Both the position numbers and the translations under genes were made by a program. Positions 28,287 to 63,530 of a DNA stretch of 64,000 nt are shown here, in pieces; position 1 is the first letter of the stretch, and the number at the start of each line of letters is the position of its first letter. The stretch spans positions 31,477 through 95,476 of the forward strand of contig CAZUJL010000011.1 of assembly GCA_964620045.1 (NCBI GenBank), read 5' to 3'. The notes under the pieces were generated by a model. The model did no database searches, had not been told where the DNA came from, and saw nothing but the letters and a program-made list of their open reading frames with translations. The stretch is from an uncultured Nitrospirales bacterium (lineage in GTDB: Bacteria > Hydrogenedentota > Hydrogenedentia > Hydrogenedentales > GCA-2746185).

Positions 28287-28458
28287 TTACGCCGCCGCGT
28301 GGCTCCCGCCGCGGACTTCGTCGCCGAAGCGCACCGATACGATTTGCGATACGCCGCGTTCCTGCTGGGTCACGCCGTACATGCCGGCAGCCTGCGCCAT
28401 CGTCTGTTTGTTGTGCGTAATCACGACGAACTGGGTGTCGACCGTGAACTCTTCAACC
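28287..28458. repeat. Direct repeat copy B (the 3' end of intact smc)
   Basis: See copy A. Confidence 0.85.
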
Positions 28459-31400: not shown

Positions 31401-31865
31401 TTCCGGCTTCGAGCTGAGCACCATGCCGATCTTGCCCTGCCCGATCATCGAGTACGCGTTCGTCCCGATGCCGGTGTCCATGAACAGTTCCTGCACATCG
31501 CGCAGGCGGCATGGCGCCTTGTTGATCAGGTACTCGCTCTCGCCCGAGCGGTACACGCGGCGGGTGACCTGCACCTCGGCAAATTCGATCGGCAGCGCGC
31601 CGTCGGCGTTGTCGAAAGTCAGCGTCACTTCGGCCATGCCCATGGCCGCGCGCTCTTCGCTGCCGTTAAAAATCACGTCCTGCATATGCGCGCCGCGCAG
31701 GCTCTTGGGCTTCTGCTCGCCCAGCGCCCAGCGCATCGCGTCGAGAATATTGCTCTTCCCGCAGCCGTTCGGCCCCACCACCGCGGTCATGCCCGCGTCG
31801 AGGTCCACAATGGTTCGGTCCGCGAAGGACTTAAAGCCGATCATTTCGATTCGTTTGAAATGCAT
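28287..31865 (-). CDS. smc: Chromosome partition protein SMC
   Basis: MHFKRIEMIGFKSFADRT...VVGPNGCGKSNILDAMRWALGEQ, a long coiled coil, the LSGGEQAMTAIALLF signature, and a C-terminal Walker B segment. Confidence 0.9.
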   Translation of the reverse strand: MHFKRIEMIGFKSFADRTIVDLDAGMTAVVGPNGCGKSNILDAMRWALGEQKPKSLRGAHMQDVIFNGSEERAAMGMAEVTLTFDNADGALPIEFAEVQVTRRVYRSGESEYLINKAPCRLRDVQELFMDTGIGTNAYSMIGQGKIGMVLSSKPEDRRFLFEEAAGIIKYKTRKKIAMRKLEGADQNLLRLGDIVHEVERQMRSLKRQVNAALRHRELTTQLRELEIRASWLKQRDLTAKLAELNERFAQAQDTYEKKNAEMSELEARHEELSLAKLEADRNLHARREAVHEIDVEMEKIERHVALVRQQITFSRDQEQKAAAERESLEIQGNSLETQGTEVAARLEALRAEQAEIDAVLAARQAELQQASERVKEADARLEESRRKTVDAMNQRSRAETAIEKLTVNIAHMEEQLAALDTRLAEEARQRESLNAALADAEQREQAEAAALAGVESELSEANIAEKRLREERETARAIWQGLREERGRVEARLTSFRELRDSYEGFAAGVKAIMHAKQTAHPAASGVIGPVGDLVRTAPEFERAVEAALGAYVNCVVVERSEDAAAAIAYLSEQQAGRVTFLPLDAIEAAVTENAESIPARSLLSLVNFDERYSAIVRYLMGDTYLTDSLDEALRLSREVRPRRSFVTADGSVIVPSGAVTGGRAANESRGLLGRSAEIERLDAALADVEFRLAHAAWKNEDVALHLAAQTELREALTQRMDAVRTGRAKVAAERDRLSREIARLEKSAEHNEAERNVLVSRRDDFTTQRTQQQDAAAALELEAMSLERALTMAQEASAEARTAHATMAAALADLRVHIAELAKSVEETAREHQRVQRECAHARSEAGRRAQAIEDFRTQVGLLETDITEHLERSKALSEAREEARTRVVEAENRRQEVLDESDTIEKALKVLREEVREAQTLVHKTEMELRHDESQLEFFRERILNEYHVALASLTEEEVGADEHDAETREKMVADIRERLERLGPVNLMAIEEHEALVERHAFLVAQDQDLRKAREALLGVIQRIDKTITAMFVETFNAVAENFKNYFRRLFNGGQARLFLTDENDPLECGIEIEARPPGKKPQSIMLLSGGEQAMTAIALLFGIFKAKPSPFCVLDEVDAPLDDANIGRFVSMVEEFTVDTQFVVITHNKQTMAQAAGMYGVTQQERGVSQIVSVRFGDEVRGGSHAAA

Positions 31866-32041
31866 GGTTTCCCGCCTGAGTTGATGCGCCCGAGATCCCC
31901 CAGCACGCGATCGCGCAGCTTCGAAAAAGCACGGCACAGCCGCCGCGCCAATCGAGGGGTGGGCTTCCGCCCAAAGATACCGCCCCACCGCCCAGCCCAT
32001 TGTCGGCGCTGGGGTTAGGGAATGTCAATCGCGAAATAACC

Positions 32042-33604
32042 CTACTTCGCGAGCTCCGAGGACCGCGTTTCGCGCACGACCGTGATCCGGATTTGGCCGG
32101 GGTAGGTCACGTCGCTTTCGATCTTTCGCGCGATGTCCCGCGCGAGCTGTTGCGACTGCGCGTCGTCCACCGAATCCGGCCGGACGACCACCCGCACCTC
32201 GCGGCCGGCCTGAATCGCGTAGCTCTTTTCGACGCCCGGGAAGGCGTCGGCAATTTCCTCAAGCTGCTTGATGCGCTTGATGTAGGTATCCACCGTTTCG
32301 CGCCGCGCGCCGGGCCGGGCGGCCGACAGGGCGTCCGCCGCCTGCACCAGCACGGCAATGACGGAATTTTGGGGCATTTCGTTGTGGTGTGCGCCCACGG
32401 CATTCGCGATCAGCTCGGATTCGCCATATTTTTTGCACAAATCGTAGCCCAGCACCGCGTGGGAGCCTTCGACTTCGTGGGTCAGCGCCTTGCCCATGTC
32501 GTGGATCAGGGCCGCGCGCTTGGCAACCTGGATGTCCTCGCCGATTTCGGCCGCCATGATGCCGGCCAGGTGGCAGACTTCCTGGCTATGGCGCAACACG
32601 TTCTGGCCATAGGACGTGCGGTATTTCAACCGGCCAATCAGCTTTACGATTTCCGGGTGCAGCCCGTGCACGTCCACTTCCATGCACGCCGCGTCGCCCC
32701 ACTCGCGGATGTTCTGATCCATTTCCTGGCCGACCTTCTCGACCATTTCCTCGATGCGCGCGGGATGGATGCGGCCGTCCTGGATCAGGCGCTCCAACGT
32801 AATGCGCGCGATTTCGCGCTTGATGGGATCGAAGCCGGAGAGCACCACGGCCTCGGGGGTGTCGTCGATGATCAGGTTGATGCCGGTCGCCGTTTCCAGC
32901 GCGCGGATGTTGCGCCCTTCGCGGCCGATGATGCGGCCCTTCATTTCGTCGCTGGGCAGCGCGACCACCGACACGGAATGCTCCGCGATGTGGTCCGCCG
33001 CGCAACGCTGCACGGCCTCGCTGAGAATCTTCTTGGCCTTCTTCTCGGAATTCTCGACCAGCTCGTCTTCAATGCGCTTGAGCCGCAGCGCCGAGTCGCG
33101 CCGCACTTCCTGTTCCAGCTTCTCGAAGATCTGCTCGCGCGCGGCGTCCGCCGTTAACCCGGCAATCTGCTCCAGTTGCTTGAGTTGCTGCTGGATAATT
33201 TCGTCGACGCGGGTCTCTTTTTTCTTCAGATTGTCCGCGCGGCCCTGCAATTCCTTGTCGCGTTTCGAGAGGTTTTCGGTCTTTTCTTCGAGGGCTTCCA
33301 GGCGGGAATCGAGGCTCTCTTCCTTCTTCAGGATACGTTTTTCAAGGTTCAGCAGCTCGGTGCGCTGTTTGGAAGATTCCTCCTCCATGCGCTCGCGGAG
33401 CGAAATTTCCTGCTCCTTCACGGAAGTCTTGGCTTCTTTGGCCATGGCCGCGGCATTGCGTTCCGCGTCGGACAGAATCTGCGCCGCTTCGCGCCGCGCG
33501 GCCTTCAGCGCGCCTTGCCCGCGCATGGTCATCAGCACGATACCGCCGCCGGCGCCAAGGACCAGCGCGACGACTACCAAGGCCCACATAATGGGATCGG
33601 ACAT
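32042..33604 (-). CDS. rny: Ribonuclease Y
   Basis: N-terminal TM helix, coiled coil, KH domain ([13 protein letters not shown]) and HD domain (LIHDMGKA...). Confidence 0.85.
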
Positions 33605-34133
33605 GTTTCATCATCTCCTCGGGGACCGAAGAGACGCAGATCGGGGATGGTGTGAGAACGGACTTACGCGGATGGGCGAAGCGGTGCGGTCATAAAATCG
33701 ATGTACCGCCCTGGATCAAGGCTCACTCGTTGTGCTTCGCCGAAACTACAGATCGCGGCAGTCGTGCCGCGCATCCGTCGTTCTTCGGCGGAGCGGTCAA
33801 GGCAAACGCCTGTCATTCACCAACCTATCGCTAAACGCCCCGTGAAGGGACGAAGTCACGTTCTCTGGCGCAAATCGCGCCAACCGGTCCGCCGCGCACG
33901 AGCGCCGCGTCCTCGTTGCGTCTTTGGGTCACCCAGTCAGTTTCTACTCGGTGATGTATATGTGTAACGGCGATTGGCTTACTTCCGCCCCAAATCGCCG
34001 ACGGGCCATTATAGGGAGCGCTGGCAGGGCAGTCAATGAAATCTGGCCTTCAGGCCCCTGTTTGATCCGGCCCTGCGCTTCACGCTACTTTCGCGTCACG
34101 AAGCCTGCGTCGGATCCTCACGCCAAGGAAGCC

Positions 34134-36134
34134 ATGGCCCCGAACGACCCCACCATCAACGACGCCGAGGCGCTGGTTCGCCAGCAAATCGTGTCCTCTG
34201 AAGACATGGCCGAGGCCCTCAAGCGCGAAGAAGCTGGCGGTGCGCCGTGGTATCGCCAGCTTGTGCACATGCGCAAGCTCAGCTTCGGCAATGTCAGCGA
34301 CATCCTCCATTACGAATTCCATTCGCCGGCCGCGCGGCAAAGCCATGCGCAGCTCGGCGAAGCGCTCGTACACTCCAACGTGCTCACGCAGGAGCGTCTG
34401 CAGGAGGCGCTCGCGCTGCAAAAGCGCAGCGGCAAACTGCTCGGCTCCGTTCTGGTGGATGCCGGGTTCGTCACGCCGGATCAGATCGCGCAAGTCCTGG
34501 CTGCGCAGTACGGCCTCGAGTACGTCCCGCTCGACAAAACGCCCAGCCGCCGCGAGGCGCTCGACCTTGTGCCGGAAAACATCGCCGTGCAAAAGGCGCT
34601 TATTCCCGTGCATGTCGAGGGCGATCGCCTCACGGTCCTGATTACGGGTCCACAAGCCCCCGATCGCCTGAAGGCGGTCGGCATTCTGCTGGGCGTGCGC
34701 GTGCACCCGAAGATGACGGCGGTCGCCGACCTCGAAGCCGAAATCAAACGGCGCTATGAGGGGCGGCCGAAGCACCTACACGCACCCGCGCCGGCTCCCG
34801 CACCGGCGGCCAAGGCGCCTCCCAAACCTGCACCGCCCCCGGCCCCGCCGCCGGCCGCTGCGCCTGTGGCTGCAGCACCCGTGGCAAAACCGGAATCGCC
34901 GAAACCAGCGCCGACCAAGGAAACAAAAAACATGACGCAGAACGAAACATCCGAGCCGAAACGCTTCGAAGAAATCGCGCGCGAAGCCCAGGGCGTTCCG
35001 GTGGTGAAGCTCGTGACCACCATCATCGAGGGCGCGGTGAACTCCGGCGCCACGGACGTGCACCTCGATCCACAGGACCCCGAGATGCGCGTGCGCTACC
35101 GCATCGACGGCGTGCTGCACGACGTGATGAGCATTCCACGGGACATCGAGAGCGCGGTCGTCTCGCGTCTGAAAATCATGGCCGACATGGACATCACCGA
35201 AACGCGCCGGCCGCAGGACGGCCACATCAGCATGACCATCGGCGAAGGCGAGTTCGATATCCGCATCGCGACGCTGCCCGCGTTCCTCGGCGAACGCATC
35301 GTGCTGCGCCTCTTGGACCAGTCCTCGGTGCTGTCGGGGATCCGCGATCTCGGCCTCGAGCCGGACGACGAGAAGCGGCTCCAGCGCATTATCGAGCAGC
35401 CCTACGGCATGATTCTCGTGACCGGCCCCACGGGCAGCGGTAAAACGACGACGCTTTACTCCTGCCTGAACGAAATGGATGTGCTCACGCAAAGCATCGT
35501 CACGCTTGAAGACCCGGTCGAATACCAGCTCTCGGGCATTAACCAGGTGCAGATCGATCCGGATATCGATCTCACCTTTGCCAACGTGCTGCGCGCCTCG
35601 CTGCGCCAGGACATTGACGTTCTGCTCGTCGGCGAAATTCGCGACCCCGAGACCGCGCGCATCGCGATCCGCGCCGCGATGACGGGCCATCTGGTTTTTA
35701 GCACCCTGCACACCAACGATGCGCCGGAAGCTATTTCAACACTGCGCAACATGGACGTGCCGTCGTACCTTGTCGCGTCGGCGCTCACCGCAATCATCGC
35801 GCAGCGCCTGGTGCGCTGCATCTGCACCGAATGCAAAACAGCGTATACCCCGACGAAGCCGTTGCTGAATTCCATCCGTCTGCCTGAGACGACGAAAAAA
35901 CTTTACAAGGGCGCCGGTTGCAGCAACTGTTATCACACGGGTCACCACGGCCGCACGGGTATCTTCGAAATCCTCGAACTCAATGAAGCCATCCGCAAAA
36001 TGGTGGTCGCCGACGATCCGGTGGAAAAAATCGCGAAGGCCGCGAAGCTGCAAACCATGGCCGATCGCTGCCGGACGAAGGTGAAAAATGGTGAAATTAC
36101 CGCCGAGGAATTTCTGAACGTCATCCGGACGTGA
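34134..36134 (+). CDS. GspE/PilB-family secretion ATPase with two N-terminal T2SSE_N/MshEN-like domains and a Pro/Ala-rich linker
   Basis: Walker A GPTGSGKTT, Asp box, Walker B DVLLVGEIRD, His box, and a tetracysteine motif (CTECK...CSNC). AAGGAAG RBS before the ATG. Confidence 0.85.
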   Translation: MAPNDPTINDAEALVRQQIVSSEDMAEALKREEAGGAPWYRQLVHMRKLSFGNVSDILHYEFHSPAARQSHAQLGEALVHSNVLTQERLQEALALQKRSGKLLGSVLVDAGFVTPDQIAQVLAAQYGLEYVPLDKTPSRREALDLVPENIAVQKALIPVHVEGDRLTVLITGPQAPDRLKAVGILLGVRVHPKMTAVADLEAEIKRRYEGRPKHLHAPAPAPAPAAKAPPKPAPPPAPPPAAAPVAAAPVAKPESPKPAPTKETKNMTQNETSEPKRFEEIAREAQGVPVVKLVTTIIEGAVNSGATDVHLDPQDPEMRVRYRIDGVLHDVMSIPRDIESAVVSRLKIMADMDITETRRPQDGHISMTIGEGEFDIRIATLPAFLGERIVLRLLDQSSVLSGIRDLGLEPDDEKRLQRIIEQPYGMILVTGPTGSGKTTTLYSCLNEMDVLTQSIVTLEDPVEYQLSGINQVQIDPDIDLTFANVLRASLRQDIDVLLVGEIRDPETARIAIRAAMTGHLVFSTLHTNDAPEAISTLRNMDVPSYLVASALTAIIAQRLVRCICTECKTAYTPTKPLLNSIRLPETTKKLYKGAGCSNCYHTGHHGRTGIFEILELNEAIRKMVVADDPVEKIAKAAKLQTMADRCRTKVKNGEITAEEFLNVIRT

Positions 36135-36522
36135 TCGGCCAGAAAACCGCGTATTATTGGGCTTTGCGCCTTGTAAAGCCCCTGAGCCTTTGTTAGCATG
36201 AAGTCGCTGCACGGGGTTCTGCGGGCAGCGCTTCCCGGGGTTGAGATCTCCACAGGTTTGTTGGATATGTGGAGAATTGTTTGTGAATCGCACTCCAAAA
36301 ACGCGCGGTTCATCAACACGAATTCAGACCCCATGAAGCGGCGGGATGGTGGTATGGGGAGTGCGGGGAATGATCGTGCATTTTTTCCGCAAGTCATCCA
36401 CCGGCCAACCAGTGTCGCGCCATGGGGTTGGAAGGTTTTCACAATAACTCACACGACCACTACTACGATTACTTAATTTATAAATTAAGAAAAGAACCAT
36501 TACTACACGAGGATATTGTGAA

Positions 36523-37632
36523 ATGAAGATCATCATCCCGAAGCAGGATTTACTGGACGCGGTCAATAAAGTGAAGACGGTAGTGTCCGCGAAATCCGCG
36601 TTGCCGATCCTCTCTCACATCCTCATCGAAGCGGAAAAGGGAAAGATTCATCTTTCCGCGACGGATTTGAAAGTCAGTCTGGAATGCACAGTTGATTGTG
36701 AAGTGAAGAAAGCCGGTTCATTGACGGTGTCTTCACAGCGTCTTGCATCCATCCTGGCTGAGCTTCCGGATTCGGATATCACGATTGAACTGGGTGAAAG
36801 CAATGTGATTCGCATTGAATGCGGGAAAATCCACACCCGCTTGTTCAGTATGTCACCCGAAGAGTTCCCGCCCGCGCGGCAGTTGGAAGATGTGGAGCCG
36901 CTGGTTCTGCCACAGAAGTTACTCCGGGATATTTTTGAGAAGACCTCTTTCGCGATTTGCACCGACCAGGCCCGCTACAACCTTACAGGACTTTTGATGG
37001 AGCTCAAGAACGGCGTGCTTACCGCCGTGGCCACGGATGGTCGCCGCATGAGCCTTTACAAGGAAGATGAAGGCATCATCGATGGTGTCAACGTAAAGGT
37101 GATTGTTCCGGGAAAATTGATCCAGGAATTGATGCGTTTGCTGGGTGATGAAGGTGATGTGCAGGTGTATTTCGGCGAGAATCAGGCCGCCTTCGAGTTT
37201 GATTCACTCCGCTTGACGACGGCCCTTATCGAAGGTTCGTTCCCGAATTACGAGATGGTCGTGCCGCAGAAGCACGACAAACAGGCCAAGGTCGATACCG
37301 CTGCCTTTATCGAAGCGGTACGCCGTACGCGCACAATGACCAACGAAAAATTTAACTCCGTTCGCTTTAAGCTCGACAACGGACTAGTCCGCCTGAGCGT
37401 AGTAACCCCTGAAGTTGGTGAATACGAAGAAGAGCTGCAACTCGAGTACAAGGGCGACACAATCGAGATCGCGTTCAATCCTGATTTCCTGCTTGATATT
37501 CTCAAACACATCAACTCTGATTCATCCATCTTGGTGCTGAAGGACGCGATGAGCCCGGGCATCGTAAAGCCGGTGGCCGAGAACGGCACCGACAAGTACA
37601 TCAACGTCGTGATGCCAATCCGCATATCCTGA
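36523..37632 (+). CDS. dnaN: DNA polymerase III beta sliding clamp
   Basis: MKIIIPKQDLLDAVNKV...ILSHILIEA..., about 369 aa, typical DnaN. Confidence 0.9.
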   Translation: MKIIIPKQDLLDAVNKVKTVVSAKSALPILSHILIEAEKGKIHLSATDLKVSLECTVDCEVKKAGSLTVSSQRLASILAELPDSDITIELGESNVIRIECGKIHTRLFSMSPEEFPPARQLEDVEPLVLPQKLLRDIFEKTSFAICTDQARYNLTGLLMELKNGVLTAVATDGRRMSLYKEDEGIIDGVNVKVIVPGKLIQELMRLLGDEGDVQVYFGENQAAFEFDSLRLTTALIEGSFPNYEMVVPQKHDKQAKVDTAAFIEAVRRTRTMTNEKFNSVRFKLDNGLVRLSVVTPEVGEYEEELQLEYKGDTIEIAFNPDFLLDILKHINSDSSILVLKDAMSPGIVKPVAENGTDKYINVVMPIRIS

Positions 37633-37648
37633 GGGCATGTGGGAAAGT

Positions 37649-37657
37649 TGTGGATAA
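37649..37657. promoter_or_regulatory. Perfect DnaA box TGTGGATAA in the AT-rich region 3' of dnaN
   Basis: Exact 9-mer consensus, inside a 234-bp AT-rich intergenic region that also contains a nearby AAACCATT...AATGGTTT inverted repeat and a TATATATATAAATT tract. Confidence 0.4.
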
Positions 37658-37866
37658 CCCAGGTTTCATTCGGGAATATCTTGACCGTACTGCTACTCAC
37701 ACCCATCAAAATTGAAAACTACTCTGCAACACGATCACTATAAACCATTTATCATCAATGGTTTATATATATAAATTGACGCTTGGTTTTTAGACCCTTG
37801 GGATTTCCCAGCTAGCGAAGTTTTGCGTCAACTGATCATACGCGCGGTGCATAACTCCTTTAATTC

Positions 37867-38847
37867 GTGAGATGTTTCCTTGTCGCGGGAGGTAGCGTTC
37901 TGGCGAAGTATCTGGTGACCGGCGGCGCTGGATTCATCGGCGGCCATTTGGTCGAAGCGCTCGTTCGGCGTGGCGAAGATGTCCGTGTATTGGACAACCT
38001 CGCCACCGGGAAGATTCACAACCTCGCGAATTTTCGCAACCAGATCGAATTCATTGAGGGCGATATCTGTGATGCGGATACGCTCGCCCGCGCGATGAAC
38101 GGCGTCACATACTGCCTGCACCAAGCGGCGCTCGGTTCTGTCCCGCGCTCAATCGCCAACCCTCTGGCCAGCAACGAGGCCAACGTTATCGGCAGCATCG
38201 CTGTCTATCTCGCCGCGCGCGACGCCGGCGTAAAGCGTGTGCTCGCCGCATCGTCGTCGTCCGTGTATGGCCCGCGGGCGCCGGTGCCCACGCCGGAATC
38301 GTCGCCGCTCTCGCCGGCCTCTCCCTACGCCGTGTCGAAAGCCGCGGCTGCGATGTACGGCGAAGTTTTCTCGCAAATATACAGCACGGAGATCGCCCTG
38401 CTTCGCTACTTCAACGTATTTGGTCCACGACAGGATCCAACCTCGCAGTACGCGGCCGTGATCCCGCGCTTCACGACGTCGCTGTTGAACGGTCAGGCGC
38501 CCACAATCAACGGCGACGGCCAGCAGTCCCGCGACTTCACCTTTGTGGAGAACGTAGTGGAGGCCAACCTCGCGGCCTGCGCCGCGCCCACGCGCCTCAG
38601 CGGTACCTACAACGTGGCCTGTGGCGGCACGACGACGATCCTGCGGTTGTACGAGCTGATCTCGCAGGAATTGGGCGTGAGTATTGCCCCGATCCACGGC
38701 CCGCCGCGCGCGGGCGATATTACGCGGTCTTTCGCCGACATCACGCGCGCCAAAGAAGGCTTTGGATATACGCCGCGCGTCAGTGTGGAAGATGGGATCA
38801 AGCGCACGGTGGCCTGGTACCGCGCGCAACACGCGCAGCGCGCTTAG
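37867..38847 (+). CDS. NAD-dependent epimerase/dehydratase (GalE/WbpP-like UDP-sugar 4-epimerase family)
   Basis: VTGGAGFIGGHLVEAL Rossmann motif and YAVSKAAAAMY (YxxxK). The start is uncertain (GTG at 37867 or downstream). Confidence 0.75.
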   Translation: MRCFLVAGGSVLAKYLVTGGAGFIGGHLVEALVRRGEDVRVLDNLATGKIHNLANFRNQIEFIEGDICDADTLARAMNGVTYCLHQAALGSVPRSIANPLASNEANVIGSIAVYLAARDAGVKRVLAASSSSVYGPRAPVPTPESSPLSPASPYAVSKAAAAMYGEVFSQIYSTEIALLRYFNVFGPRQDPTSQYAAVIPRFTTSLLNGQAPTINGDGQQSRDFTFVENVVEANLAACAAPTRLSGTYNVACGGTTTILRLYELISQELGVSIAPIHGPPRAGDITRSFADITRAKEGFGYTPRVSVEDGIKRTVAWYRAQHAQRA

Positions 38848-54217: not shown

Positions 54218-56509
54218 GTGCGCACATTGCTGGTACTCTCGCTGCTTCTAGCCGCGTCCGCCTCTTCGGCGCCGGCCGATATGCCCAAGGGCTCCTTGCT
54301 GATCGCCGAGCACGGCGTGGCCCACGGCCGTATCGTGGTGGCCGACGATGCATTACCGTCCACGCTCTATGCCGCGGCTGAATTGCAGCGCTTCCTGAAC
54401 GAAATGAGCGGCGCGCGGATCCCCATCGTGCCCGCCACGGAACGTTTGCGCCGGGGCGATATCGTGCTCGGCCAAAGTCCGAACTACCGTCGCCGCATTG
54501 GCATAAAGTACGACACGGCTCCGGCGCGGCCCGAAACCTACTTTCTGAACACACATCAGGGCTGCCTCTACATCAATGGCGCTGAACCGCGCGGGGTGTT
54601 GTATGGGGTCTACGCCCTGCTCGAAGACGTGCTCGGCTGCCGCTGGTTTACGCCCGAAGTCAGTCGGATTCCTAAGGCCGATTCCCTCGTGATTCCGCCG
54701 CTCAGCGTGTCACACGCTCCCGCGCTCGAATACCGCGAACCTTTCACCGCCGAGTGCCGCGACGGGGAGTGGGCCGCGCGCAACCGCATGAACAGCAGTG
54801 CCGCAGATCTCACAGAGGCCCAGGGCGGCAAAGTGACCTACTTTGGTTTCGTGCATACCTTCGACCAACTTATACCGCCGGCGCAGTATTTCGACACGCA
54901 CCCCGAGTACTTCTCGCTGGTCAAGGGCAAACGCCTGAAGGAGCGTTCGCAGCTCTGCACGACCAACGAGGATGTCGTCCGCATCATCACCGACGAAATC
55001 CGCAAGCGCATGCGCGAACACCCGGAAGCGACCGTGTTCTCCGTCTCGCAGAACGACTGGTACAACTACTGCGAGTGCGACAAATGCACTGCGATGGCCC
55101 AGGCCGAAGGCTCGCAGATCGCGCCGGTGCTCTGGATGGTCAACCGCGTCGCGGATGCGGTCAAGGACGAGTTCCCCGACAAAGCCATCGATACGCTCGC
55201 CTACCAATGGACCCGCAAACCGCCGCGCACGATGCGCCCGGCGTCCAACGTGATTATGCGCCTGTGCAGCATCGAATGCTGCTTCGCGCACTCCTTCGAA
55301 GCCTGCAATAGCCCCGAAAACAGGGCCTTTGTGGAGGATGTGAAGGGCTGGTCGACCATGTGCGACCGCCTGTGGGTGTGGGACTACGTCACCAGTTTCG
55401 GCCACTACCTCACACCGTTCCCGAACATGCGCCTGCGCGACGACAACATCCGTTTCTTCGCCGAGCACAACGTCACCGGCATCTTCGAGCAGGACGTTTA
55501 CACCACGAAGAACGGCGAGCTTTCCGCGCTCAGTGGCTATGTGGGTGCGAAGCTGTTGTGGAATCCGGACGCCGACGCACAGATCGCCACAACGGAATTC
55601 CTCGATGGCGTCTACGGCGCGGCCGCGCCACACATCCAGCGCTACCTCGATTTGATCCACGATCACGTCGAGCAGGAAAACCATCACGTCATGATCTGGG
55701 CGAGTCCTTCGGATCCGTATCTGAACGAGGCGCTGCTGGCGCAGGCCGACACCATCTGGGACGCCGCCGAAGCAGCCGTTGCCGCCGAGCCGGATACGCT
55801 CGCGCGCGTGCAGACGGCGCGGCTGACGGTTGATTATGCGATCATCGAACGTGCACGCCAGCGCGGCGATCGGCCCTACTCCATCGATCACGCCACCTAC
55901 ACCGTCACGCCAAACCCGGAGTTCCGCGCGCGGGCGGATCGCTTCTTTACCATCGGCGAGCGTAGCCACATTGAAAGCCTGCGCGAGTCCAGTTTCACGC
56001 TTGCGGACTACGCCAAGTTGATCGAGCCGATGATGAGCCCGGTGACGCTCAAGCCGATTTCCGCAAAATCCCATCCGTCCGGATTGCAGCCGGGCCTCAA
56101 TTTCCAATACTACGAAGGCGATTTTACGGACCTGCCCGATTTCAATGCGCTTACGCCCACCGCCACCGGCTGGACAGGCCGCGTGTCCCTCGATCCTTCG
56201 CCGCAAACAAATGCGCTTGCCCTGCGCTTCGAAGGCTATATCGAAATTCCCGCCGACGGCGTCTACACCTTCAACACGCGCTCCAACGACGGCAGCCAGC
56301 TTTTCCTCGGCGACAAGCTCCTGGTCGACAACGGAGGCCAGCACCCGATGCGCGGCCAGTCGGCCTTCATCGCGCTGCGAAAAGGGTATTATCCCCTCCG
56401 CGTGACGTACTTTCAGGCCGGGGCCCTCTATGGCCTTGAGCTCTACTATTCCGGCCCGGGGATCGAGATGCAGCAAGTCCCGACGTCCGCGCTGTGGCGC
56501 AGGCCGTAG
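54218..56509 (+). CDS. Secreted DUF4838-like (GH-like TIM barrel) protein with a C-terminal PA14 domain
   Basis: Signal peptide; a long domain typical of DUF4838 glycan-active proteins; PA14-like segment LNFQYYEGDF...GYYPLRVTYFQ. Confidence 0.5.
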   Translation: MRTLLVLSLLLAASASSAPADMPKGSLLIAEHGVAHGRIVVADDALPSTLYAAAELQRFLNEMSGARIPIVPATERLRRGDIVLGQSPNYRRRIGIKYDTAPARPETYFLNTHQGCLYINGAEPRGVLYGVYALLEDVLGCRWFTPEVSRIPKADSLVIPPLSVSHAPALEYREPFTAECRDGEWAARNRMNSSAADLTEAQGGKVTYFGFVHTFDQLIPPAQYFDTHPEYFSLVKGKRLKERSQLCTTNEDVVRIITDEIRKRMREHPEATVFSVSQNDWYNYCECDKCTAMAQAEGSQIAPVLWMVNRVADAVKDEFPDKAIDTLAYQWTRKPPRTMRPASNVIMRLCSIECCFAHSFEACNSPENRAFVEDVKGWSTMCDRLWVWDYVTSFGHYLTPFPNMRLRDDNIRFFAEHNVTGIFEQDVYTTKNGELSALSGYVGAKLLWNPDADAQIATTEFLDGVYGAAAPHIQRYLDLIHDHVEQENHHVMIWASPSDPYLNEALLAQADTIWDAAEAAVAAEPDTLARVQTARLTVDYAIIERARQRGDRPYSIDHATYTVTPNPEFRARADRFFTIGERSHIESLRESSFTLADYAKLIEPMMSPVTLKPISAKSHPSGLQPGLNFQYYEGDFTDLPDFNALTPTATGWTGRVSLDPSPQTNALALRFEGYIEIPADGVYTFNTRSNDGSQLFLGDKLLVDNGGQHPMRGQSAFIALRKGYYPLRVTYFQAGALYGLELYYSGPGIEMQQVPTSALWRRP

Positions 56510-56533
56510 TCGAAGTAAAGGAGTCGTCCTCGC

Positions 56534-57832
56534 ATGAAGCACTCTCGCCGCACCTTCCTGAAAGGCACGCTTGCCGGGGCCGCCGGCTTCGCGTTTCTGC
56601 CTTCGCGTCGCGCCACGGCGGCCCGTGTTGGGCCGAACGACACCGTGCGTCTCGCCGTCGTCGGCTGTGGTGGCATGGGCCGCGCGCACATCTATTCGCT
56701 GGCCTATCAGGACGGCTGTGAAATCGTCGCGCTGTGCGACGTATACAAGCCGCGCTACGAAGAAGTCGTGCAGAACGTCACCACGATTTATCACGACAAG
56801 CGCAACATGCCGGACAAGACGCCGGTCGGCTACCAGGACTTCCGGCACGTCCTCGATCGCGACGATATCGATGCGGTGTTCTTTGCCACGCCGGACCACT
56901 GGCACGCGCTGATGACGATCATGGCCTGCCAGGCCGGCAAGGATGTTTACGTGGAAAAGCCCTGCTCCACCACGGTGGACGAAGGCCGCAAGATGGTCGA
57001 GGCCGCGCGCCGCTATGGCCGTGTCGTGCAGGTGGGCACGCAGCAGCGCTCCATGCCGGTCTTCCACGAGGCTATGAAGATCATCCACAGCGGCGTGCTT
57101 GGCCCGATCACGACCGCCACCGCGTGGATCGGCACGAACTACACCGGCGAACGCATGACCTATGAGCCTGTGCCCGAGGGCCTTGATTGGGACCTCTGGC
57201 TCGGCCCGGCGCCGGAAGTGCCCTATTCGCCCGAGCGCTTTGGCGCCTTCCGCGGCTGGCACGAATACGCCCGCGGCGGCGAGCTGACGAACTGGGGCGT
57301 GCACCTTGTCGACATCCTGCACTGGGGCATCGGCCAGGATGCGCCGCTCAACATTCAGGCGACCGGCGGCAATTACATCACCGGGGGCGGCGCGGACAAC
57401 TATGAAGTCGTCGACGCGCTCTTCGAATATCCCGGTTGCACGCTCACGTGGGAGCAGCGCCACACGAACCAGCACGCCTCGCTCGGCTACGGCATGAAGT
57501 TCCAGGGGCCGAACGGCCAGCTTGCTTGCGACCGAGGCCGGCTCTTTGTCGAACCCGACACGCTCGGCATCGCGCCGATGATTTTCCCGCCGGAAGAGAC
57601 CTGGGCGAATCGTGATCATCACCAGAATTTCTTCGACTGCGTGCGCACGCGCCGTCGGCCCGCCGCCGATATCGAGCAGGGTCATCGCTCCACGACGGCG
57701 GTGCTGCTTGCCGGCATCGCGCTGCAGTCCGACCGCGAACTGCACTGGGATCGCACCACCGAAACCTTCCTGAACGATCCGCAAGCCAACCGCCATCTGT
57801 CGCGGCCCTACCGCGCCCCGTGGCATCTGTAG
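56534..57832 (+). CDS. Gfo/Idh/MocA-family oxidoreductase with a twin-arginine (Tat) signal
   Basis: RRTFLKG Tat motif and VGCGGMGRAH Rossmann motif. Confidence 0.8.
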   Translation: MKHSRRTFLKGTLAGAAGFAFLPSRRATAARVGPNDTVRLAVVGCGGMGRAHIYSLAYQDGCEIVALCDVYKPRYEEVVQNVTTIYHDKRNMPDKTPVGYQDFRHVLDRDDIDAVFFATPDHWHALMTIMACQAGKDVYVEKPCSTTVDEGRKMVEAARRYGRVVQVGTQQRSMPVFHEAMKIIHSGVLGPITTATAWIGTNYTGERMTYEPVPEGLDWDLWLGPAPEVPYSPERFGAFRGWHEYARGGELTNWGVHLVDILHWGIGQDAPLNIQATGGNYITGGGADNYEVVDALFEYPGCTLTWEQRHTNQHASLGYGMKFQGPNGQLACDRGRLFVEPDTLGIAPMIFPPEETWANRDHHQNFFDCVRTRRRPAADIEQGHRSTTAVLLAGIALQSDRELHWDRTTETFLNDPQANRHLSRPYRAPWHL

Positions 57833-59931
57833 AAGGCTGTGAAATGACGTCGAAATTCTACAATTTATTGGCGAAAACCCTCGTTTTTGGCTTGGCGCTG
57901 GCGGCCACCTTCTCGGCCTCCGCCCAGATCGCGCGCCACGAATTGCTGCGCATGATGCGGAGCGACAATGCGAAGGAGCGCGCCCTCGCGCGTCAGCTTC
58001 TGCCGCGCGAAGGCGTCGATGTTGTCGAGGACGTGCTGCCCGCGCTCGCCGACGGCAACGAGGCTGTGTGGCGCACGGCGTCGAACATCCTCAGCGATAT
58101 CGGCAACGAAGTCTCCGCGCCCGGCTTCGAAGCCAATCGGCGCCACTACTCGGATCTGCTGCTTGCGCGCCTTGCCGCTAAACCGGAAGCGGCCGAAGTT
58201 ACGCGCCTGCTCAACATCGTTCCGTTTGCACTGCCCGAAGGCACCGATGTCGCGCCCGTCGCCGCGTATCTGGCCGATCCCGCGTTGCGCTTCAACGCCC
58301 GCAATGCGTTGCAGCTTGCGGCCACAACAGAGTCCAAGACCGCCTTGCGCACGGCGCTGAAGGGTGCCGACGGCACCTTTGCGCTCGCGCTCATCGACAC
58401 GCTCGACAAGCTCCGCGATGCCGCCGCCCGCGAGCAATTGACCGCCCGCATGCGCGATCGCGACCCGGCCATTCGCGCCGCCGCCGCGCGCGCCCTGGCG
58501 TGGACGGGAGATACGAGCCTCGTTCCCGCGTACCGCGAGATCATCAAGAACGCCACGCCCGAAACGCAGATTGAAGCCGGCAACGCCATCTTGCTGCTGG
58601 CGGATGCCGTGGTGGTGCGCGGCGGCCAATACGATTTCGCCATGGAGATTTATCGCTGGGCGCTGCAGAACCTGGACGGCCTGGTGCTCAAGGGCGCCGC
58701 CATGGCCAGCATGGGGCGTTACGGCGATGACCGCGTCGTGCCCTGGATTCTGGATGCCGCCGCGGCCGCTCCCTCTGGCACGCTCGATCATGGCGCCCTG
58801 GAGGCCTTTGCTGCCTTGAAAGGCGACACCTGCGCGCACGTACTCGTGGCAAACCATGAAGCTTCGCTGAAGCAGTTCGGGCCTTCGATTTACGGTGCGT
58901 ACGGCCGCCGGCCTGAAGAAATTTTCTTATCGCTGCTGCTCGACGCGGTCAACAGCGATGACGCCTACACGCGCCACGTCGTTACGCTGGCGCTGCTCGA
59001 TACGGACCGTCCGCAGGCGATTCAGGTGGTCGCGCAGCGCGGCGTAGGTCTCGAAGGCGAACCCCGCGCGATTCTCATCGACACCCTCGAACTCAAGGCC
59101 GCCAAATACCGCCGGGCGAACAACGCCGCGGCCGCCGGCGCTGCGTATGCCGGCCTCTATCGTCTCGCGACGACCGACGAAGACCGCCATTTTGCGCTGG
59201 ACGGCATGATGCGGTATCCCTCCGAGGAAGCCTTCACGCTGGTGAAAGACCTCATTGGCCAGGACCAGCTCAAGGACCTGTCCGTGCCCTTCCTGGCCGG
59301 CATTGCGCGTGCGCTCTACGCGGCCAATCGCCCCGAGGACGCAGGCCGCATTCTTGACTCCGTCGTGCCGCGCATCGTCACCAGTGCCGACATGCAGGCC
59401 TTCATGGGCGCCGTGCAGGGTGGCGGACCGGAACTCGCCCGTGCGCTTGGCTTCATCACGAAGTGGCAGGTGATCGGCCCCTTCCCGTGGTCGATGGCCG
59501 ATGCGTTTTCGGCAAATCCCATCGGCGCGCCGGACGTCGATCTTGGTAAGACGTACTCCGTATCCAAAGGCGATCCGCGCGCGTGGAAGGCTGCGGAAGC
59601 CGGCGGCGCGAACGCCATCGTCGATCTGACTGGGCTCTTTGGTATGCAGTCCAATGCCGCGGCCTACGCTTACGCCGAGATCAACGCCGCAGAGGCGACG
59701 CCCATTGTGCTGCGCGCCGGTAGCGACGACGGCATCAAGATTTGGGTCAACGGCACCGTGGCCCACGAGCACAACATCGATCGCGGCCTTGCCGTCGATC
59801 AGGATCAAGCCAACGCCGGGTTGGTTGTCGGAAAGAATCGTATCCTCGTCGAGATTACGCAGGGCGGCGGCGGTTGGAATTTCTGCCTGCGGCTGACCTA
59901 TCCGGATGGTCGCCCCTACTCGGCGAAGTGA
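57826..59931 (+). CDS. Secreted HEAT/PBS-lyase-repeat protein with a C-terminal beta-sandwich (lectin/GH-like) domain
   Basis: Signal peptide, repeated DPAIRAAAARALA-type HEAT units, and a C-terminal WQVIGPFP...IKIWVNG domain. Confidence 0.5.
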   Translation, partial: SVEGCEMTSKFYNLLAKTLVFGLALAATFSASAQIARHELLRMMRSDNAKERALARQLLPREGVDVVEDVLPALADGNEAVWRTASNILSDIGNEVSAPGFEANRRHYSDLLLARLAAKPEAAEVTRLLNIVPFALPEGTDVAPVAAYLADPALRFNARNALQLAATTESKTALRTALKGADGTFALALIDTLDKLRDAAAREQLTARMRDRDPAIRAAAARALAWTGDTSLVPAYREIIKNATPETQIEAGNAILLLADAVVVRGGQYDFAMEIYRWALQNLDGLVLKGAAMASMGRYGDDRVVPWILDAAAAAPSGTLDHGALEAFAALKGDTCAHVLVANHEASLKQFGPSIYGAYGRRPEEIFLSLLLDAVNSDDAYTRHVVTLALLDTDRPQAIQVVAQRGVGLEGEPRAILIDTLELKAAKYRRANNAAAAGAAYAGLYRLATTDEDRHFALDGMMRYPSEEAFTLVKDLIGQDQLKDLSVPFLAGIARALYAANRPEDAGRILDSVVPRIVTSADMQAFMGAVQGGGPELARALGFITKWQVIGPFPWSMADAFSANPIGAPDVDLGKTYSVSKGDPRAWKAAEAGGANAIVDLTGLFGMQSNAAAYAYAEINAAEATPIVLRAGSDDGIKIWVNGTVAHEHNIDRGLAVDQDQANAGLVVGKNRILVEITQGGGGWNFCLRLTYPDGRPYSAK

Positions 59932-59938
59932 AGTGGAC

Positions 59939-61084
59939 TCAGGTTGCCATCACTTCTAGAAAGACTTTCTTAAAGGTCTCCATCTCGTCCGGCGTGCCGA
60001 TCGAGATGCGCGCGTGCGTCGGCCACGAAGACCACGGCCGGCCGATGTATACGTCGCGTGCGGCCATGCGCGCGATGACGTCCTGCGCCGGCCGGTGGGT
60101 GTCGACCATCATTTTATTGCTCTGATTCAGCGCAAACGTGTAGCCGTTTTTCGTGAAAAAGTCCTGCAAATCCTTACGCCGCTCGTCGTATAGCGCTTTG
60201 CGCTCCGGCACCACCGTCGAGTCGGCCAGCATCGTGCGCGCCGCTGCCATGGCCGGCGCCGGCATCGCGCCCGCCTGCATGCCGCGCATGGGCGTCACCT
60301 TGTCCGGCGACCCGATTGCAAAACCCGCGCGCAGCCCCGCCATGCCGTAAATCTTGGAGAAGGTCCGCAGCACGACCACGTTGCGCCCGTCACGCACATA
60401 CGCTGTGCCGCGGGGCTCATCGGTAAAGTGGATATACGCCTCGTCCAAAATCACAGTTACATCGCTTGGACAGTTTTCTATTATATATTTCACGTCGGCA
60501 TCCGGCACCACGGTCCCGGTCGGATTGTTCGGATTGCAGAGATAAATCGCGCCCGCGCCTGTAGCTGCTTTCACCATGCTCTGCACGTCCTGCCGGCCGT
60601 CTTTGGCGAGCGGTACGCGCGTGACCGGCGCGCCCATCCACCGTGCAGCACCCGCAGCCGACTCATATCCTGGGTCGGACGTAACGAGCCCGCGCGACGG
60701 AGACGTGTATGCGATGACCGCCTGGTGCAACGCGAGACTCGATCCCGGATAGACCAATATGCCGCGCGGATCCACGCCTTCCTGCTCGGCAAACAGGCCG
60801 ACGAGGTCGGAGGCTTCTTCGTAGTTGTAGCGTCCGCCATCACGCGCCACGGCCGTATATGCGTCCAGCGCCGCGGGCGTGATCCCCATCGGGTTTTCGT
60901 TCGCGTTGATCTTCACCGCGCCCGCCCCGAGCCGCCTTCCCAAGGCCGACGCCTGCGCCATCGCGGCTTCGTTGTAGAAGGAGAGCGTCGCCGCGCCCGC
61001 GCCGAGCAGGGTCGCGATCTTGAAGAAGTCCCGGCGCGAGTGGCCGAGTTTGATCAGGGTCTCCGCCGTCTGTTCGGTCAGCAT
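59939..61084 (-). CDS. Class I/II PLP-dependent aminotransferase (HisC-like) with an N-terminal Tat signal peptide
   Basis: SRRDFFKIATLLGAGAATL...AMA Tat signal, INANENPMG (HisC-type), and the PLP-binding Lys region TFSKIYGMAGLRAG. Confidence 0.7.
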   Translation of the reverse strand: MLTEQTAETLIKLGHSRRDFFKIATLLGAGAATLSFYNEAAMAQASALGRRLGAGAVKINANENPMGITPAALDAYTAVARDGGRYNYEEASDLVGLFAEQEGVDPRGILVYPGSSLALHQAVIAYTSPSRGLVTSDPGYESAAGAARWMGAPVTRVPLAKDGRQDVQSMVKAATGAGAIYLCNPNNPTGTVVPDADVKYIIENCPSDVTVILDEAYIHFTDEPRGTAYVRDGRNVVVLRTFSKIYGMAGLRAGFAIGSPDKVTPMRGMQAGAMPAPAMAAARTMLADSTVVPERKALYDERRKDLQDFFTKNGYTFALNQSNKMMVDTHRPAQDVIARMAARDVYIGRPWSSWPTHARISIGTPDEMETFKKVFLEVMAT

Positions 61085-61523
61085 CGCGAATCCTCCGAGG
61101 AAAAAGTATATCCCTATTTAGCAACGACGATGCCACGAAATTTTCACACGATCTACGCTAAAACGGGCTGTTTTTAAAATCCCCGCGTGCCTTGGTGCCA
61201 CGGAAGACACCCTCCCGTAAGTTTCGCACAGCGAGCTACCGCCGGGTAGAAAAAGCGCACGCGGCCGATCTGGAGTTTGTTGAAATTAGAGCTATATAAG
61301 CATAATAGTATTTATGTATAGCTCGAAAATCGGCGATTTTTGGCGGTCTGTCGCAAACGGGGGCAATATTTTGAGGAGTATCCTGCGTGGAAGTGGCGCC
61401 TTACGTGAATAACTTGGGGATAACCGCACTTTTTGGTCGACGAATGGTGCTTGGGGCGCCAGGTAGGGCTAGTTATAGGGGCGATTCTCCCTATTTTGGC
61501 TGATTTGGGTCTGTGGTGCCATT

Positions 61524-61532
61524 TGTGGATAA
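61524..61532. promoter_or_regulatory. Perfect DnaA box TGTGGATAA in the 480-bp AT-rich non-coding region beside rsmG (a second box-like TGGGGATAA at 61415..61423)
   Basis: Exact consensus 9-mer read from the sequence; the region 61085..61563 has no convincing ORF and is AT-rich. Confidence 0.4.
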
Positions 61533-61563
61533 GTTGGGTGCTTCGATGGGTTCCACGTGGAAC

Positions 61564-62202
61564 CTAGCGGGTTAGTCTATAGAGCTTGCCACGGCGCAGC
61601 CCGCTGCCTTCGAAGGCATCATGCACCGGCACGCACTCCGTTACCCCATGCACGCCGGCTGTCGCAGCCTCTCGTTGCATCAAGTACACGTCTCCGGGCC
61701 GCAATTGCTTTATTAGTTCAGAGTCGAAGGCTTCAGGGCGTTCCACGGCTCGCGCGGTATAGATGCGGCCCTTCGGGGCGTCGAGTTGTAGGGGATATTG
61801 GCCTGCCACCACATGGCCCGAGGGCAGGTCGAGCGCCCTCAGCGCCTGGCGTAGATAGTCGGACTTCCGTTCGGAGCGTTCGACCAACCATACCGCCCGG
61901 TCCCCCAGCGCGACAGCGATTGGTAGGGCGGGGAATCCTCCTCCCGATCCGATATCGACATAGGCCAGATCTGGTCGGCCCTGGATCTCTGGACAGAGGG
62001 TCAGCGAATCGGCGATATGCTCGTCGAAGCGTTCACCGAGGTCGCCTTTGGACATCAACTTCGCGGCAAGGTTCCACGTGGAACATAGCCGATGGAAGAC
62101 CTCAATCCGCGCCAGGAAGGTATCGTGATCAATATCAATCCCGAGCGACAGGAGGACATTAAGGGCCTTGGTGGTTTGAGGAAAGCCATAGGAAGAAATC
62201 AT
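61564..62202 (-). CDS. rsmG: 16S rRNA (guanine527-N7)-methyltransferase RsmG (GidB)
   Basis: STWNLAAKLMS...DIGSGGGFPALPIAVAL SAM-binding motif; the start (ATG 62202 or TTG 62262) is uncertain. Confidence 0.75.
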   Translation of the reverse strand: MISSYGFPQTTKALNVLLSLGIDIDHDTFLARIEVFHRLCSTWNLAAKLMSKGDLGERFDEHIADSLTLCPEIQGRPDLAYVDIGSGGGFPALPIAVALGDRAVWLVERSERKSDYLRQALRALDLPSGHVVAGQYPLQLDAPKGRIYTARAVERPEAFDSELIKQLRPGDVYLMQREAATAGVHGVTECVPVHDAFEGSGLRRGKLYRLTR

Positions 62203-62300
62203 GGAAATTACTTGCGTTTTGGCCAATAAATTCGATACATTCGGCAAATCCTGTAAGAGCAACCCACAAGCCTAATCACGCACATCTTGGGAGATACCCC

Positions 62301-63530
62301 GTGAAATTCTTGGTCCTTTTGGGGGACGGCATGGCCGATTTCCCGCATCCGGATTTGGACAATAAGACCCCGCTTCAGTACTCGAAAACTCCCGCGATGG
62401 ATGCCGCCGCGCGGTCGGGCGTCTCCGGGTTGTTCTGTCCTATCGCTGACGGTCTGCCTGCCGGCAGTGACATTGGCAACCTGACCGTCTTCGGATACAA
62501 CCCCCGCGAGACCTTCACCGGCCGTGCTCCGTTGGAGGCCGCGAACCAGGGAATCGTGCCCACCGACAACGAACTAGTCTTCCGCTGCAATCTAGTGACG
62601 CTGGAAGACGGCAAAATGCGGGATTTCACGGCCGATCATATCACGAACGAAGAAGCGCGCGAGCTGATCGGGGCGATCAACGCCGCAATGGGCCGGCCCG
62701 GCCTGCGCTTCGCGCCCGGCGTGAGCTATCGCAACCTGTGCATCGTGGGCACGACGCCCTCCACGCGCGAGCCCTTGCGCACCCTGCGCTGCACCCCTCC
62801 GCATGATATTACAGGACAAAACTATGATACGCATTTACCCTCGGGTCCGCAGCAGGATGCGGTCCGCGCGCTGATGGAGGCCTCGCGGCCCGTTCTCGCG
62901 GATCACCCTGTAAATAAAGCTCGCCGCGCGGCCGGAAAGCTCCCGGCCACGAGCATTTGGCTCTGGGGCCAGGGCGGCGCGCCGCGGATCGCGCCCTACC
63001 GCGAACGCTTCGGGATCAGCGGAGCCGTCGTGTCCGCGGTCGATCTTGTCAACGGCATTGGCCATTGCGCCGGCTTTGAAGTCCTCCGCGTTCCGGGTAT
63101 CACGGGCTATCTCGACACCAACTACGAAGGCAAAGTCAGCGCCGCGCTGGATGCCTTCGATCGCCACGACTTTGTCTACCTCCACGTCGAAGCGCCAGAC
63201 GAAACAGCCCATCAGGGACGCCCGGATCTGAAGGTTCAGGCCATCGAAGACTTCGACAAGCGCGTCGTGGCCCCCTGCCTGGAAGCCGCCCGCCGCCGCG
63301 GCGACATCCGGATTCTCATTGCACCGGACCACATCACCTCGCTGGCCAGCCGCACCCATGCCGGCGGCCCTGTTCCTTTTGTTCTGTGCGGCCCCGGCAT
63401 CCGTCCCAACGGCCTGCGGTCGTACGACGAAGCCGAGGCCGCGCGCGCCGGCGTGTTGTACCCGGACGGCCACATGCTCGTGCCCGCCATGATTCGCGAG
63501 CAAGAGATCGCCTTCCCCCATGTGTCATAA
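62301..63530 (+). CDS. Cofactor-independent phosphoglycerate mutase, archaeal-type (ApgM family)
   Basis: MKFLVLLGDGMADFP at the N-terminus and the metalloenzyme-domain pattern; about 409 aa. Confidence 0.7.
   Translation: MKFLVLLGDGMADFPHPDLDNKTPLQYSKTPAMDAAARSGVSGLFCPIADGLPAGSDIGNLTVFGYNPRETFTGRAPLEAANQGIVPTDNELVFRCNLVTLEDGKMRDFTADHITNEEARELIGAINAAMGRPGLRFAPGVSYRNLCIVGTTPSTREPLRTLRCTPPHDITGQNYDTHLPSGPQQDAVRALMEASRPVLADHPVNKARRAAGKLPATSIWLWGQGGAPRIAPYRERFGISGAVVSAVDLVNGIGHCAGFEVLRVPGITGYLDTNYEGKVSAALDAFDRHDFVYLHVEAPDETAHQGRPDLKVQAIEDFDKRVVAPCLEAARRRGDIRILIAPDHITSLASRTHAGGPVPFVLCGPGIRPNGLRSYDEAEAARAGVLYPDGHMLVPAMIREQEIAFPHVS

Follow-up and report, generated by a model that had tools for sequence, protein, structure and literature searches.

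The 64-kb window analysed here, the whole 64,000-nucleotide stretch of contig CAZUJL010000011.1, encodes a 381-residue aminotransferase with a twin-arginine (Tat) export signal at its N-terminus. In our judgement the gene is probably a stand-alone, divergent member of PRK09105 (NF006580), a family of Tat-exported, pyridoxal phosphate (PLP)-dependent periplasmic transaminases that includes PtaA of Pseudomonas. The Tat-signal aminotransferase is real, yet it is already known as a kind. The host is a bacterium of the uncultured phylum Hydrogenedentota, judging from its DnaN (36523-37632), which is 66-75% identical to proteins of Candidatus Hydrogenedentes/Hydrogenedentota. The gene and its parts are laid out below; A1 denotes an alignment of 28 family sequences, which is also the basis of the AlphaFold model.

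59939..61084, minus strand: complete coding sequence of the Tat-signal, HisC-fold PLP aminotransferase, 381 aa plus stop, starting with ATG (open reading frame (ORF) list, PF00155, NF006580/PRK09105)
60956..61084, minus strand: predicted Tat signal peptide, residues 1-43 (n-region 1-15, SRRDFFK 16-22, uncharged stretch 23-38, c-region ending in A-M-A at 41-43)
61019..61039, minus strand: twin-arginine motif S16-R-R-D-F-F-K22, from the sequence (R17 and R18 invariant in A1)
59942..60955, minus strand: predicted mature enzyme, residues 44-381, a class I/II aminotransferase of the HisC subgroup (AlphaFold, Foldseek, phmmer)
60890..60907, minus strand: N60-A-N-E-N-P65 motif, the HisC-type loop of the substrate/PLP pocket (N60, A61, N62 and E63 invariant in A1)
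60353..60355, minus strand: codon of K244, the predicted PLP Schiff-base lysine (aligns with K214 of Escherichia coli HisC, 1fg3)
61091..61096, minus strand: Shine-Dalgarno sequence GGAGGA, 6 nt 5' of the ATG at 61082-61084 (read from the sequence)

The best NCBIfam match of the protein is NF006580/PRK09105 ("pyridoxal phosphate-dependent aminotransferase"; 419.5 bits, E=1e-125). The alignment runs from residue 13 to residue 380 against positions 3-372 of a 375-position model that itself includes the signal region, and it is ahead of the next family by more than 80 bits. That second family is NF051461, "pyoverdine biosynthesis transaminase PtaA" (337.7 bits against a cut-off of 500, E=6e-101), and the third is the hisC equivalog TIGR01141 (194 bits against a cut-off of 276.55). 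On the NF006580 model, other sequences score as follows:

Pseudomonas (L079, which scores 672.7 on the PtaA model): 498 bits
Xanthomonas: 579 bits
Stenotrophomonas: 538 bits
Caulobacter: 526 bits
acidobacterial relatives linked to a receptor gene (49-57% identity to the window protein): 454-495 bits, passing the cut-off
80%-identity relative of the window protein: 423 bits

On this scale the window protein is a somewhat divergent branch of NF006580/PRK09105, not an outsider, and it is neither a PtaA orthologue nor a HisC. Within the family, sequences 43-57% identical to it share a subclade signature, RR...LPFYNE.A.AQ.S, of which the window version is LSFYNEAAMAQAS.

The sequence-only reading had described the enzyme as a class I/II, HisC-like aminotransferase with an NANENPxG motif, and this description holds. 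PF00155 matches with E=1.6e-36, the aminotransferase part beginning at about residue 50, and it is the only Pfam match at E<=0.01, with DegT_DnrJ_EryC1 not matched. INANENPMG occupies residues 59-67, its NANENP aligned with NANEYP of E. coli HisC. The PLP-lysine region claimed by the same reading is equally clear now that the alignment with HisC has been run: RTFSK244IYGMAGLR pairs residue by residue with RTLSK214AFALAGLR, in which K214 is the PLP lysine of the E. coli enzyme. K244, D214, Y217, N186/N187, R252 and R349 are all invariant in A1. The AlphaFold model has a confident aminotransferase body (mean predicted local distance difference test score (pLDDT) 85.9, predicted template modelling (TM) score (pTM) 0.87). 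Its nearest structure by Foldseek is 3ly1 (TM 0.81/0.89, root-mean-square deviation 1.9 A over 330 columns), with HisC structures next, and phmmer against the PDB also returns 3ly1 (E=1.1e-38). The PLP-binding and catalytic residues of the HisC fold are, by these alignments, intact.

Ahead of the enzyme body, the product begins MLTEQTAETLIKLGH-SRRDFFK-IATLLGAGAATLSFYN-EAAMA-QAS. SRRDFFK is near the consensus S/T-R-R-x-F-L-K. The 16 residues that follow it (23-38, IATLLGAGAATLSFYN) are all uncharged, and the core of this hydrophobic region (h-region; 14 residues, 23-36) has a mean Kyte-Doolittle value of 1.64, for comparison with 1.61 and 2.07 in the Sec h-regions of the neighbouring HEAT and DUF4838 proteins. 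A-M-A at 41-43 is followed by Q44, a motif from which a signal-peptidase cut between A43 and Q44 is predicted. In the AlphaFold model the N-terminus forms helices at residues 4-12 and 17-36 (the latter with pLDDT ~76-87), and a low-confidence linker (32-46) leads into the folded domain. Of the 120 best homologues, 114 retain the twin-arginine motif and h-region, as do 61 of 69 ORFs called crudely in GTDB genomes from several phyla. The Tat signal that the sequence-only reading had placed at the start of the protein is therefore borne out, both in its own elements (SRRDFFK, 16 uncharged residues, and AMA followed by Q) and by its retention in relatives, a check which that reading had proposed. 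Within the subclade, conservation of the signal region equals that of the enzyme: residues 14-46 (60947-61045) and residues 47-381 both have a mean majority-residue frequency of 0.70.

All of this depends on where translation begins, and here the upstream methionine assumed in the sequence-only reading proved correct; the start codon is sound. The Shine-Dalgarno sequence before M1 has a counterpart, GGGAGGA, at the equivalent position in L083, a relative with 80% identity. Downstream starts in frame (M42, L48, V57 and M66) were checked and a Shine-Dalgarno sequence is absent before each; the stretch ahead of M42 is CCTTCTACAACGAAGCCGCG. Compared with the 80%-identical L083, codons 1-34 comprise 15 identical, 14 synonymously changed and 5 non-synonymously changed ones. 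This excess of synonymous change is the mark of a translated sequence under selection. Gene calls on metagenome contigs L001 and L002 include the same aminotransferase gene, and independent gene calls on metagenome contigs agree on the start codon. A downstream start was thus ruled out by the Shine-Dalgarno evidence, the conservation and the substitution pattern together. Regulatory sequence was also sought: an Rfam scan of 59500-62400 (E<=1) for a riboswitch or leader 5' of the gene gave no match, and a promoter/terminator consensus scan of 59700-61700 gave chance-level matches only, the upstream region being empty on the gene's strand.

Experimental knowledge of such enzymes comes from Pseudomonas. 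PA2531 of P. aeruginosa is presumably the PtaA of that species and a putative member of the family. PA2531 ("aminotransferase", MPALSRRSFVTLTALASSSILLSPRAFA) has a signal peptide that was validated as Tat in a genome-wide amidase reporter screen (PMC6085387). PtaA itself ("periplasmic transaminase A", P. fluorescens; Ringel, Draeger & Brueser 2017) is presented in the summary given by PMC6206403 as a normal PLP transaminase, unusual only in its periplasmic action. It travels folded, with PLP bound, via the Tat pathway, and its reaction turns the glutamate residue of pyoverdine into alpha-ketoglutarate. Its general name reflects its presence also in species unable to make pyoverdine, and the same source raises the question of how PLP is regenerated from pyridoxamine phosphate (PMP) in the periplasm, perhaps without an obvious pool of keto acids (PMC6206403). 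The Tat route for a pre-folded, PLP-loaded enzyme that the sequence-only reading had thought fitting agrees with this report.

That reading had also called periplasmic PLP aminotransferases uncommon, which is true of the characterised ones but not of the family: few have been studied, but the family is very large and already modelled, with NF006580 spanning the signal. Relatives are encoded by at least 582 of at least 600 pattern-matching stretches of GTDB contigs (one genome per species). Taxa among the matches listed include Acidobacteriota, Planctomycetota, Caulobacterales, Xanthomonadales, Pseudomonas, Gemmatimonadales and a Limnocylindria metagenome-assembled genome, and Myxococcota names occur among the protein matches. 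A full-text literature search on "periplasmic transaminase" returned pyoverdine papers only, with no function described outside Pseudomonas.

Gene order in the subclade (43-57% identity to the window protein) provides a second line of evidence. A trio of genes recurs there on one strand with short gaps: an outer-membrane receptor, the Tat-signal aminotransferase and a SulP permease. The receptor (~1150 aa) has a CarboxypepD_reg domain, a weak Plug match and an OMP_b-brl_4 barrel, which makes it TonB-dependent-receptor-like. The permease is a STAS-less SulP/Sulfate_transp protein of ~430-450 aa; the specific NCBIfam families it matches best are sulP, DauA and BicA, with scores that fall far short of the cut-off in each case. 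The complete trio occurs in at least 12 loci, made up of seven genome loci (L003, L004, L008, L010, L028, L043, L085) and five metagenome loci (L089, L092, L093, L096, L098), of which four examples are:

L003:6498-12356, receptor-aminotransferase-SulP module
L085:6383-12541, receptor-aminotransferase-SulP module
L093:6491-12493, receptor-aminotransferase-SulP module
L096:6477-12463, receptor-aminotransferase-SulP module

In some ten further loci SulP directly follows the aminotransferase, and on the truncated contigs L102 and L108 the receptor abuts it. These counts are by tblastn; neighbourhood clustering from crude greedy ORF calls gives noisy results in high-GC DNA, a shadow ORF at times taking the place of the aminotransferase. 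That the gene sits between those for an importer of the outer membrane and a permease of the inner one supports periplasmic action independently, from the genomic side, and suggests that the enzyme processes an amino compound that has been imported.

At 13 loci the module is accompanied by a small exported protein of ~180-210 aa with the HExxH-like motif AHELFHMM (for example L028:5640-6272 and L085:5510-6064). Its one Pfam hint, to DUF5700 "putative zinc peptidase", is sub-threshold.

Several observations weigh against the assignment of the window gene to this exported family, and against extending the module to it. Its score is 25 bits under the curated NF006580 cut-off of 444, and P0002, the relative with 80% identity, misses it as well (423.2 bits). 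On the isolated N-terminus, both short Tat-signal hidden Markov models (HMMs) fall under threshold: Pfam TAT_signal (PF10518) gives 20.0 bits against 22.7 (E=6.4e-4, residues 16-33) and TIGR01409 gives 13.6 bits against 16.7 (residues 16-35). These HMMs are stringent models, and SRRTFLK, the textbook signal of the neighbouring Gfo/Idh/MocA protein, is likewise under the TAT_signal threshold (22.2 against 22.7). tatABC genes were not seen within the 64-kb window; the organism does use Tat targeting, as the Gfo/Idh/MocA gene with its textbook Tat signal (MKHSRRTFLKG) implies. Activity, export and cleavage have been shown for no member outside Pseudomonas. Receptor and SulP homologues were looked for in the window, in its relatives L083 and L084 (80% identity) and in L087 (90%), and none was found. 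Hence the module inference reaches the Hydrogenedentota enzyme only by homology, and the uptake-module role may not transfer to the window lineage. Lastly, a conserved c-region with an invariant glutamate is not what one would expect of a simple cleaved signal: residues 37-46 have a mean majority-residue frequency of 0.80, and G14, R17, R18, E39, A43, Q44 and S46 are invariant in A1.

Cleaved signals usually drift, so an additional constraint on the signal region is possible, for which a signal-binding proofreading factor, a retained anchor and a structural role of the junction are possible candidates. The conservation of the entire region, the four invariant residues from E39 onward and the continuous helix 17-36 of the AlphaFold model are what an uncleaved N-terminus would lead one to expect. 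It would then be either a membrane anchor inserted by Tat or Sec, holding the enzyme at the periplasmic side of the inner membrane, or a pro-segment that binds a chaperone or has a regulatory role. We regard this as unlikely: the h-region is short and weakly hydrophobic, and a conserved A-x-A followed by Q lies beyond it where one would expect, an arrangement typical of cleaved Tat signals. In other subclades only the generic architecture of twin arginines, h-region and AxA persists, in otherwise unrelated sequences, and this also speaks for a cleaved signal. The PA2531 signal as listed ends, similarly, in an AxA-type site, RAFA (PMC6085387).

The immediate neighbours of the gene raise a different alternative:

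61564-62262, minus strand: rsmG/gidB, separated from the aminotransferase gene by a 479 bp spacer
54218-59931, plus strand: three-gene operon of exported proteins (DUF4838/PA14, Gfo/Idh/MocA, HEAT), convergent with the aminotransferase gene across a 7-bp gap

The DUF4838/PA14 protein has a GH67N/GH20b-like N-terminus and a Sec-type signal. The best NCBIfam match of the Gfo/Idh/MocA oxidoreductase is the BT_2158 glycoside 3-dehydrogenase family (148 bits against a cut-off of 750). The HEAT-repeat protein (695-703 aa) carries a Sec-type signal and has HEAT repeats as its only Pfam matches. Kanosamine-type pathways pair a dehydrogenase with an aminotransferase in this way, and one could imagine the aminotransferase aminating a periplasmic keto-sugar made by the Tat-exported dehydrogenase. 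All four gene products bear export signals, the dehydrogenase has that glycoside 3-dehydrogenase match (albeit far below its cut-off), and the adjacency is kept in both 80%-identity relatives, L083 and L084. Even so, such coupling is quite improbable. The convergent orientation means that the aminotransferase and the exported-protein genes do not form one operon, and in L083 and L084 the gene order is kept with a metallophosphatase gene inserted between them. In L087 (1-14463), whose aminotransferase is 90% identical, the neighbourhood is wholly different. There the rsmG, HEAT, Gfo and DUF4838 neighbours are all absent; upstream are PhoPQ_related and DUF1559 pilin-like genes, and downstream come an unannotated ORF, DUF5131 and a class II tRNA synthetase. 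This indicates that the gene moved recently or that the lineage has a second copy. Remoter relatives pair with the receptor and SulP instead. Sugar aminotransferases, moreover, are normally of the DegT/DnrJ/EryC1 type, whereas only PF00155 is matched here. For these reasons the amino-sugar or glycan-derived keto substrate that the sequence-only reading had offered, with the glycan-active neighbours in mind, is not supported, and a stand-alone periplasmic transaminase remains our preferred reading.

Two further items in this neighbourhood were set aside. In nine Acidobacteriaceae loci a Gfo/Idh/MocA gene of cytoplasmic type lies near the aminotransferase. These loci have RluD-like and vWA genes in common as well, so the arrangement was put down to synteny among closely related genomes and discounted as independent evidence of a dehydrogenase link. 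In the window, a 1038-aa ORF on the minus strand (54710-57826) has no Pfam match and overlaps the plus-strand DUF4838 and Gfo/Idh/MocA genes; it is a shadow ORF of the kind common in high-GC DNA, not a gene.

The spacer between rsmG and the aminotransferase gene (61085-61563) has mostly diverged from L083, with conserved islands at a perfect DnaA box (TTATCCACA) and at GTTATCCCCAAGTTATTCACG. DnaA-box-like sites lie at 61524-61532 and 61415-61423, and an AT-rich stretch follows in the window. The window holds 10 DnaA boxes against 5.0 expected, a weak enrichment that 5 of 100 shuffles reach, and dnaN, 24 kb from the spacer, is not preceded by dnaA; a replication origin (oriC) in the spacer was set aside on both counts. 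A 14-bp palindrome, GTTCCACGTGGAAC, occurs in two exact copies (0.23 expected), one directly after the rsmG stop and conserved in L083 (61550-61563), the other within rsmG, where it encodes C-S-T-W-N (62071-62084). Around dnaN the GC fraction dips to 0.51 (36000-38000) from ~0.62 elsewhere, and upstream of it lie a T2SSE-type ATPase (33924-36134) and, before that, RNase Y (32042-33604) and SMC (28287-32000).

Two readings that would place the protein in a known pathway fare worse still. It is very unlikely that the gene is an ordinary cytoplasmic HisC whose start has been called too far upstream, with the true start at M42 and no twin-arginine motif. M42 is indeed in frame, a protein starting there (MAQASALGRRLGAGAVKINANENP) would have the normal length of HisC, and HisC structures are the nearest folds after 3ly1. 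However, the ribosome-binding sequence stands before M1 and not before M42, residues 14-46 match the enzyme body in conservation, and the substitutions in codons 1-34 against L083 are of the coding type. The NF006580 alignment already begins at residue 13, the hisC equivalog score is below its cut-off, and independent contigs give the same start. The neighbours, too, are rsmG, a phosphoglycerate-mutase-like gene and exported-protein genes, with no his genes among them.

Scarcely credible is a true PtaA orthologue that turns the N-terminal glutamate of a pyoverdine-like siderophore into alpha-ketoglutarate: the PtaA equivalog is the second-best NCBIfam match and identity to a Pseudomonas PtaA is ~41%, but the score is far short of both the cut-off and the 672.7 bits of a real PtaA (L079), the neighbours annotated over ~28-64 kb of the window include no nonribosomal peptide synthetase or pvd-type genes, the host is a member of Hydrogenedentota, and PtaA homologues of non-producers are already thought to serve other pathways (PMC6206403).

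If the window protein is a Tat-exported transaminase, as we favour, it would fold in the cytoplasm and, by homology, bind PLP at K244, probably dimerising there as HisC-fold enzymes do. The Tat translocase would recognise SRRDFFK and export the holo-enzyme in its folded state, as the enzyme's homology to PtaA and PA2531 suggests, and signal peptidase would cut after A-M-A43 if the motif is read correctly. In the Hydrogenedentota periplasm a ping-pong transamination would follow. Speculatively, the donor might, as in PtaA, be a compound of the L-alpha-amino-acid type whose alpha-amino/alpha-carboxyl group is free, and the acceptor would presumably be a keto acid. Because the nearest relatives outside Hydrogenedentota sit between a receptor and a SulP permease (DauA/BicA-like), the processing of an amino compound is the likeliest role. 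Speculatively, the amino compound would be imported through the outer membrane, converted to a keto acid/anion, and then imported through the inner membrane.

A broader scheme can be offered only tentatively, and we think it rather unlikely. In the subclade that takes in Acidobacteria, Planctomycetota, Hydrogenedentota and others, there may be an undescribed form of periplasmic transamination for nutrients, comprising TonB-type uptake, perhaps trimming by the HExxH protein, deamination and SulP import. The Hydrogenedentota enzyme would be unlinked from its partners, and its signal would have a second role, for example as a handle for export proofreading.

The gene adds a representative from an uncultured phylum to the Tat-exported PLP transaminases, of which only the PtaA reaction is known. 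It touches two questions, namely which substrates periplasmic transaminases use outside Pseudomonas and how PLP is regenerated from PMP. Standing alone in a neighbourhood that varies, it offers no new way into either. The better lead is the receptor-aminotransferase-SulP module of its relatives, which makes for a testable hypothesis of role in culturable Acidobacteria.

Among known systems, PvdN is another PLP enzyme of pyoverdine tailoring that reaches the periplasm via Tat in folded, cofactor-bound form (PMC6206403, PMC6085387). It belongs, however, to another family, absent from the NCBIfam matches of the window protein, and makes succinamide from glutamate, so it is not a transaminase (PMC6206403). 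The closest solved structure, 3ly1 ("putative histidinol-phosphate aminotransferase" YP_050345.1 of Pectobacterium (Erwinia) atrosepticum), shares the NENP, NPNNPTG, DEAY and TFSKI motifs at 31% identity. It is a structural-genomics entry without assigned function, and its deposited chain aligns only from query residue 56. PtaA resembles the window protein more fully: both are HisC-fold class I/II PLP aminotransferases of ~360-380 aa with an N-terminal twin-arginine signal, both match NF006580/PRK09105 over their whole length with catalytic residues conserved, and the genes usually stand alone, outside any pathway cluster. They differ in that identity is ~41%, the PtaA-model score is 337.7 against 500 bits, and the signal-peptide sequence is another one. 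The window host is also a Hydrogenedentota bacterium in which pyoverdine genes were not found nearby, so the substrate must differ from that of PtaA; it is not pyoverdine. NF006580 takes in proteins of Xanthomonas, Stenotrophomonas, Caulobacter, Acidobacteria, Planctomycetota and others. Members that pass the cut-off are 45-57% identical to the window protein, which has LGHSRR in place of RGF(S/T)RR, and the receptor and SulP partners of its nearest members are absent from the window. With HisC (TIGR01141; 1fg3/1gew) it shares the fold and the PLP-binding constellation, K244 corresponding to K214, at ~22% identity to the E. coli enzyme in a structural alignment. HisC is cytoplasmic and without a signal peptide, whereas the window protein carries a conserved, translated extension of 43 residues.

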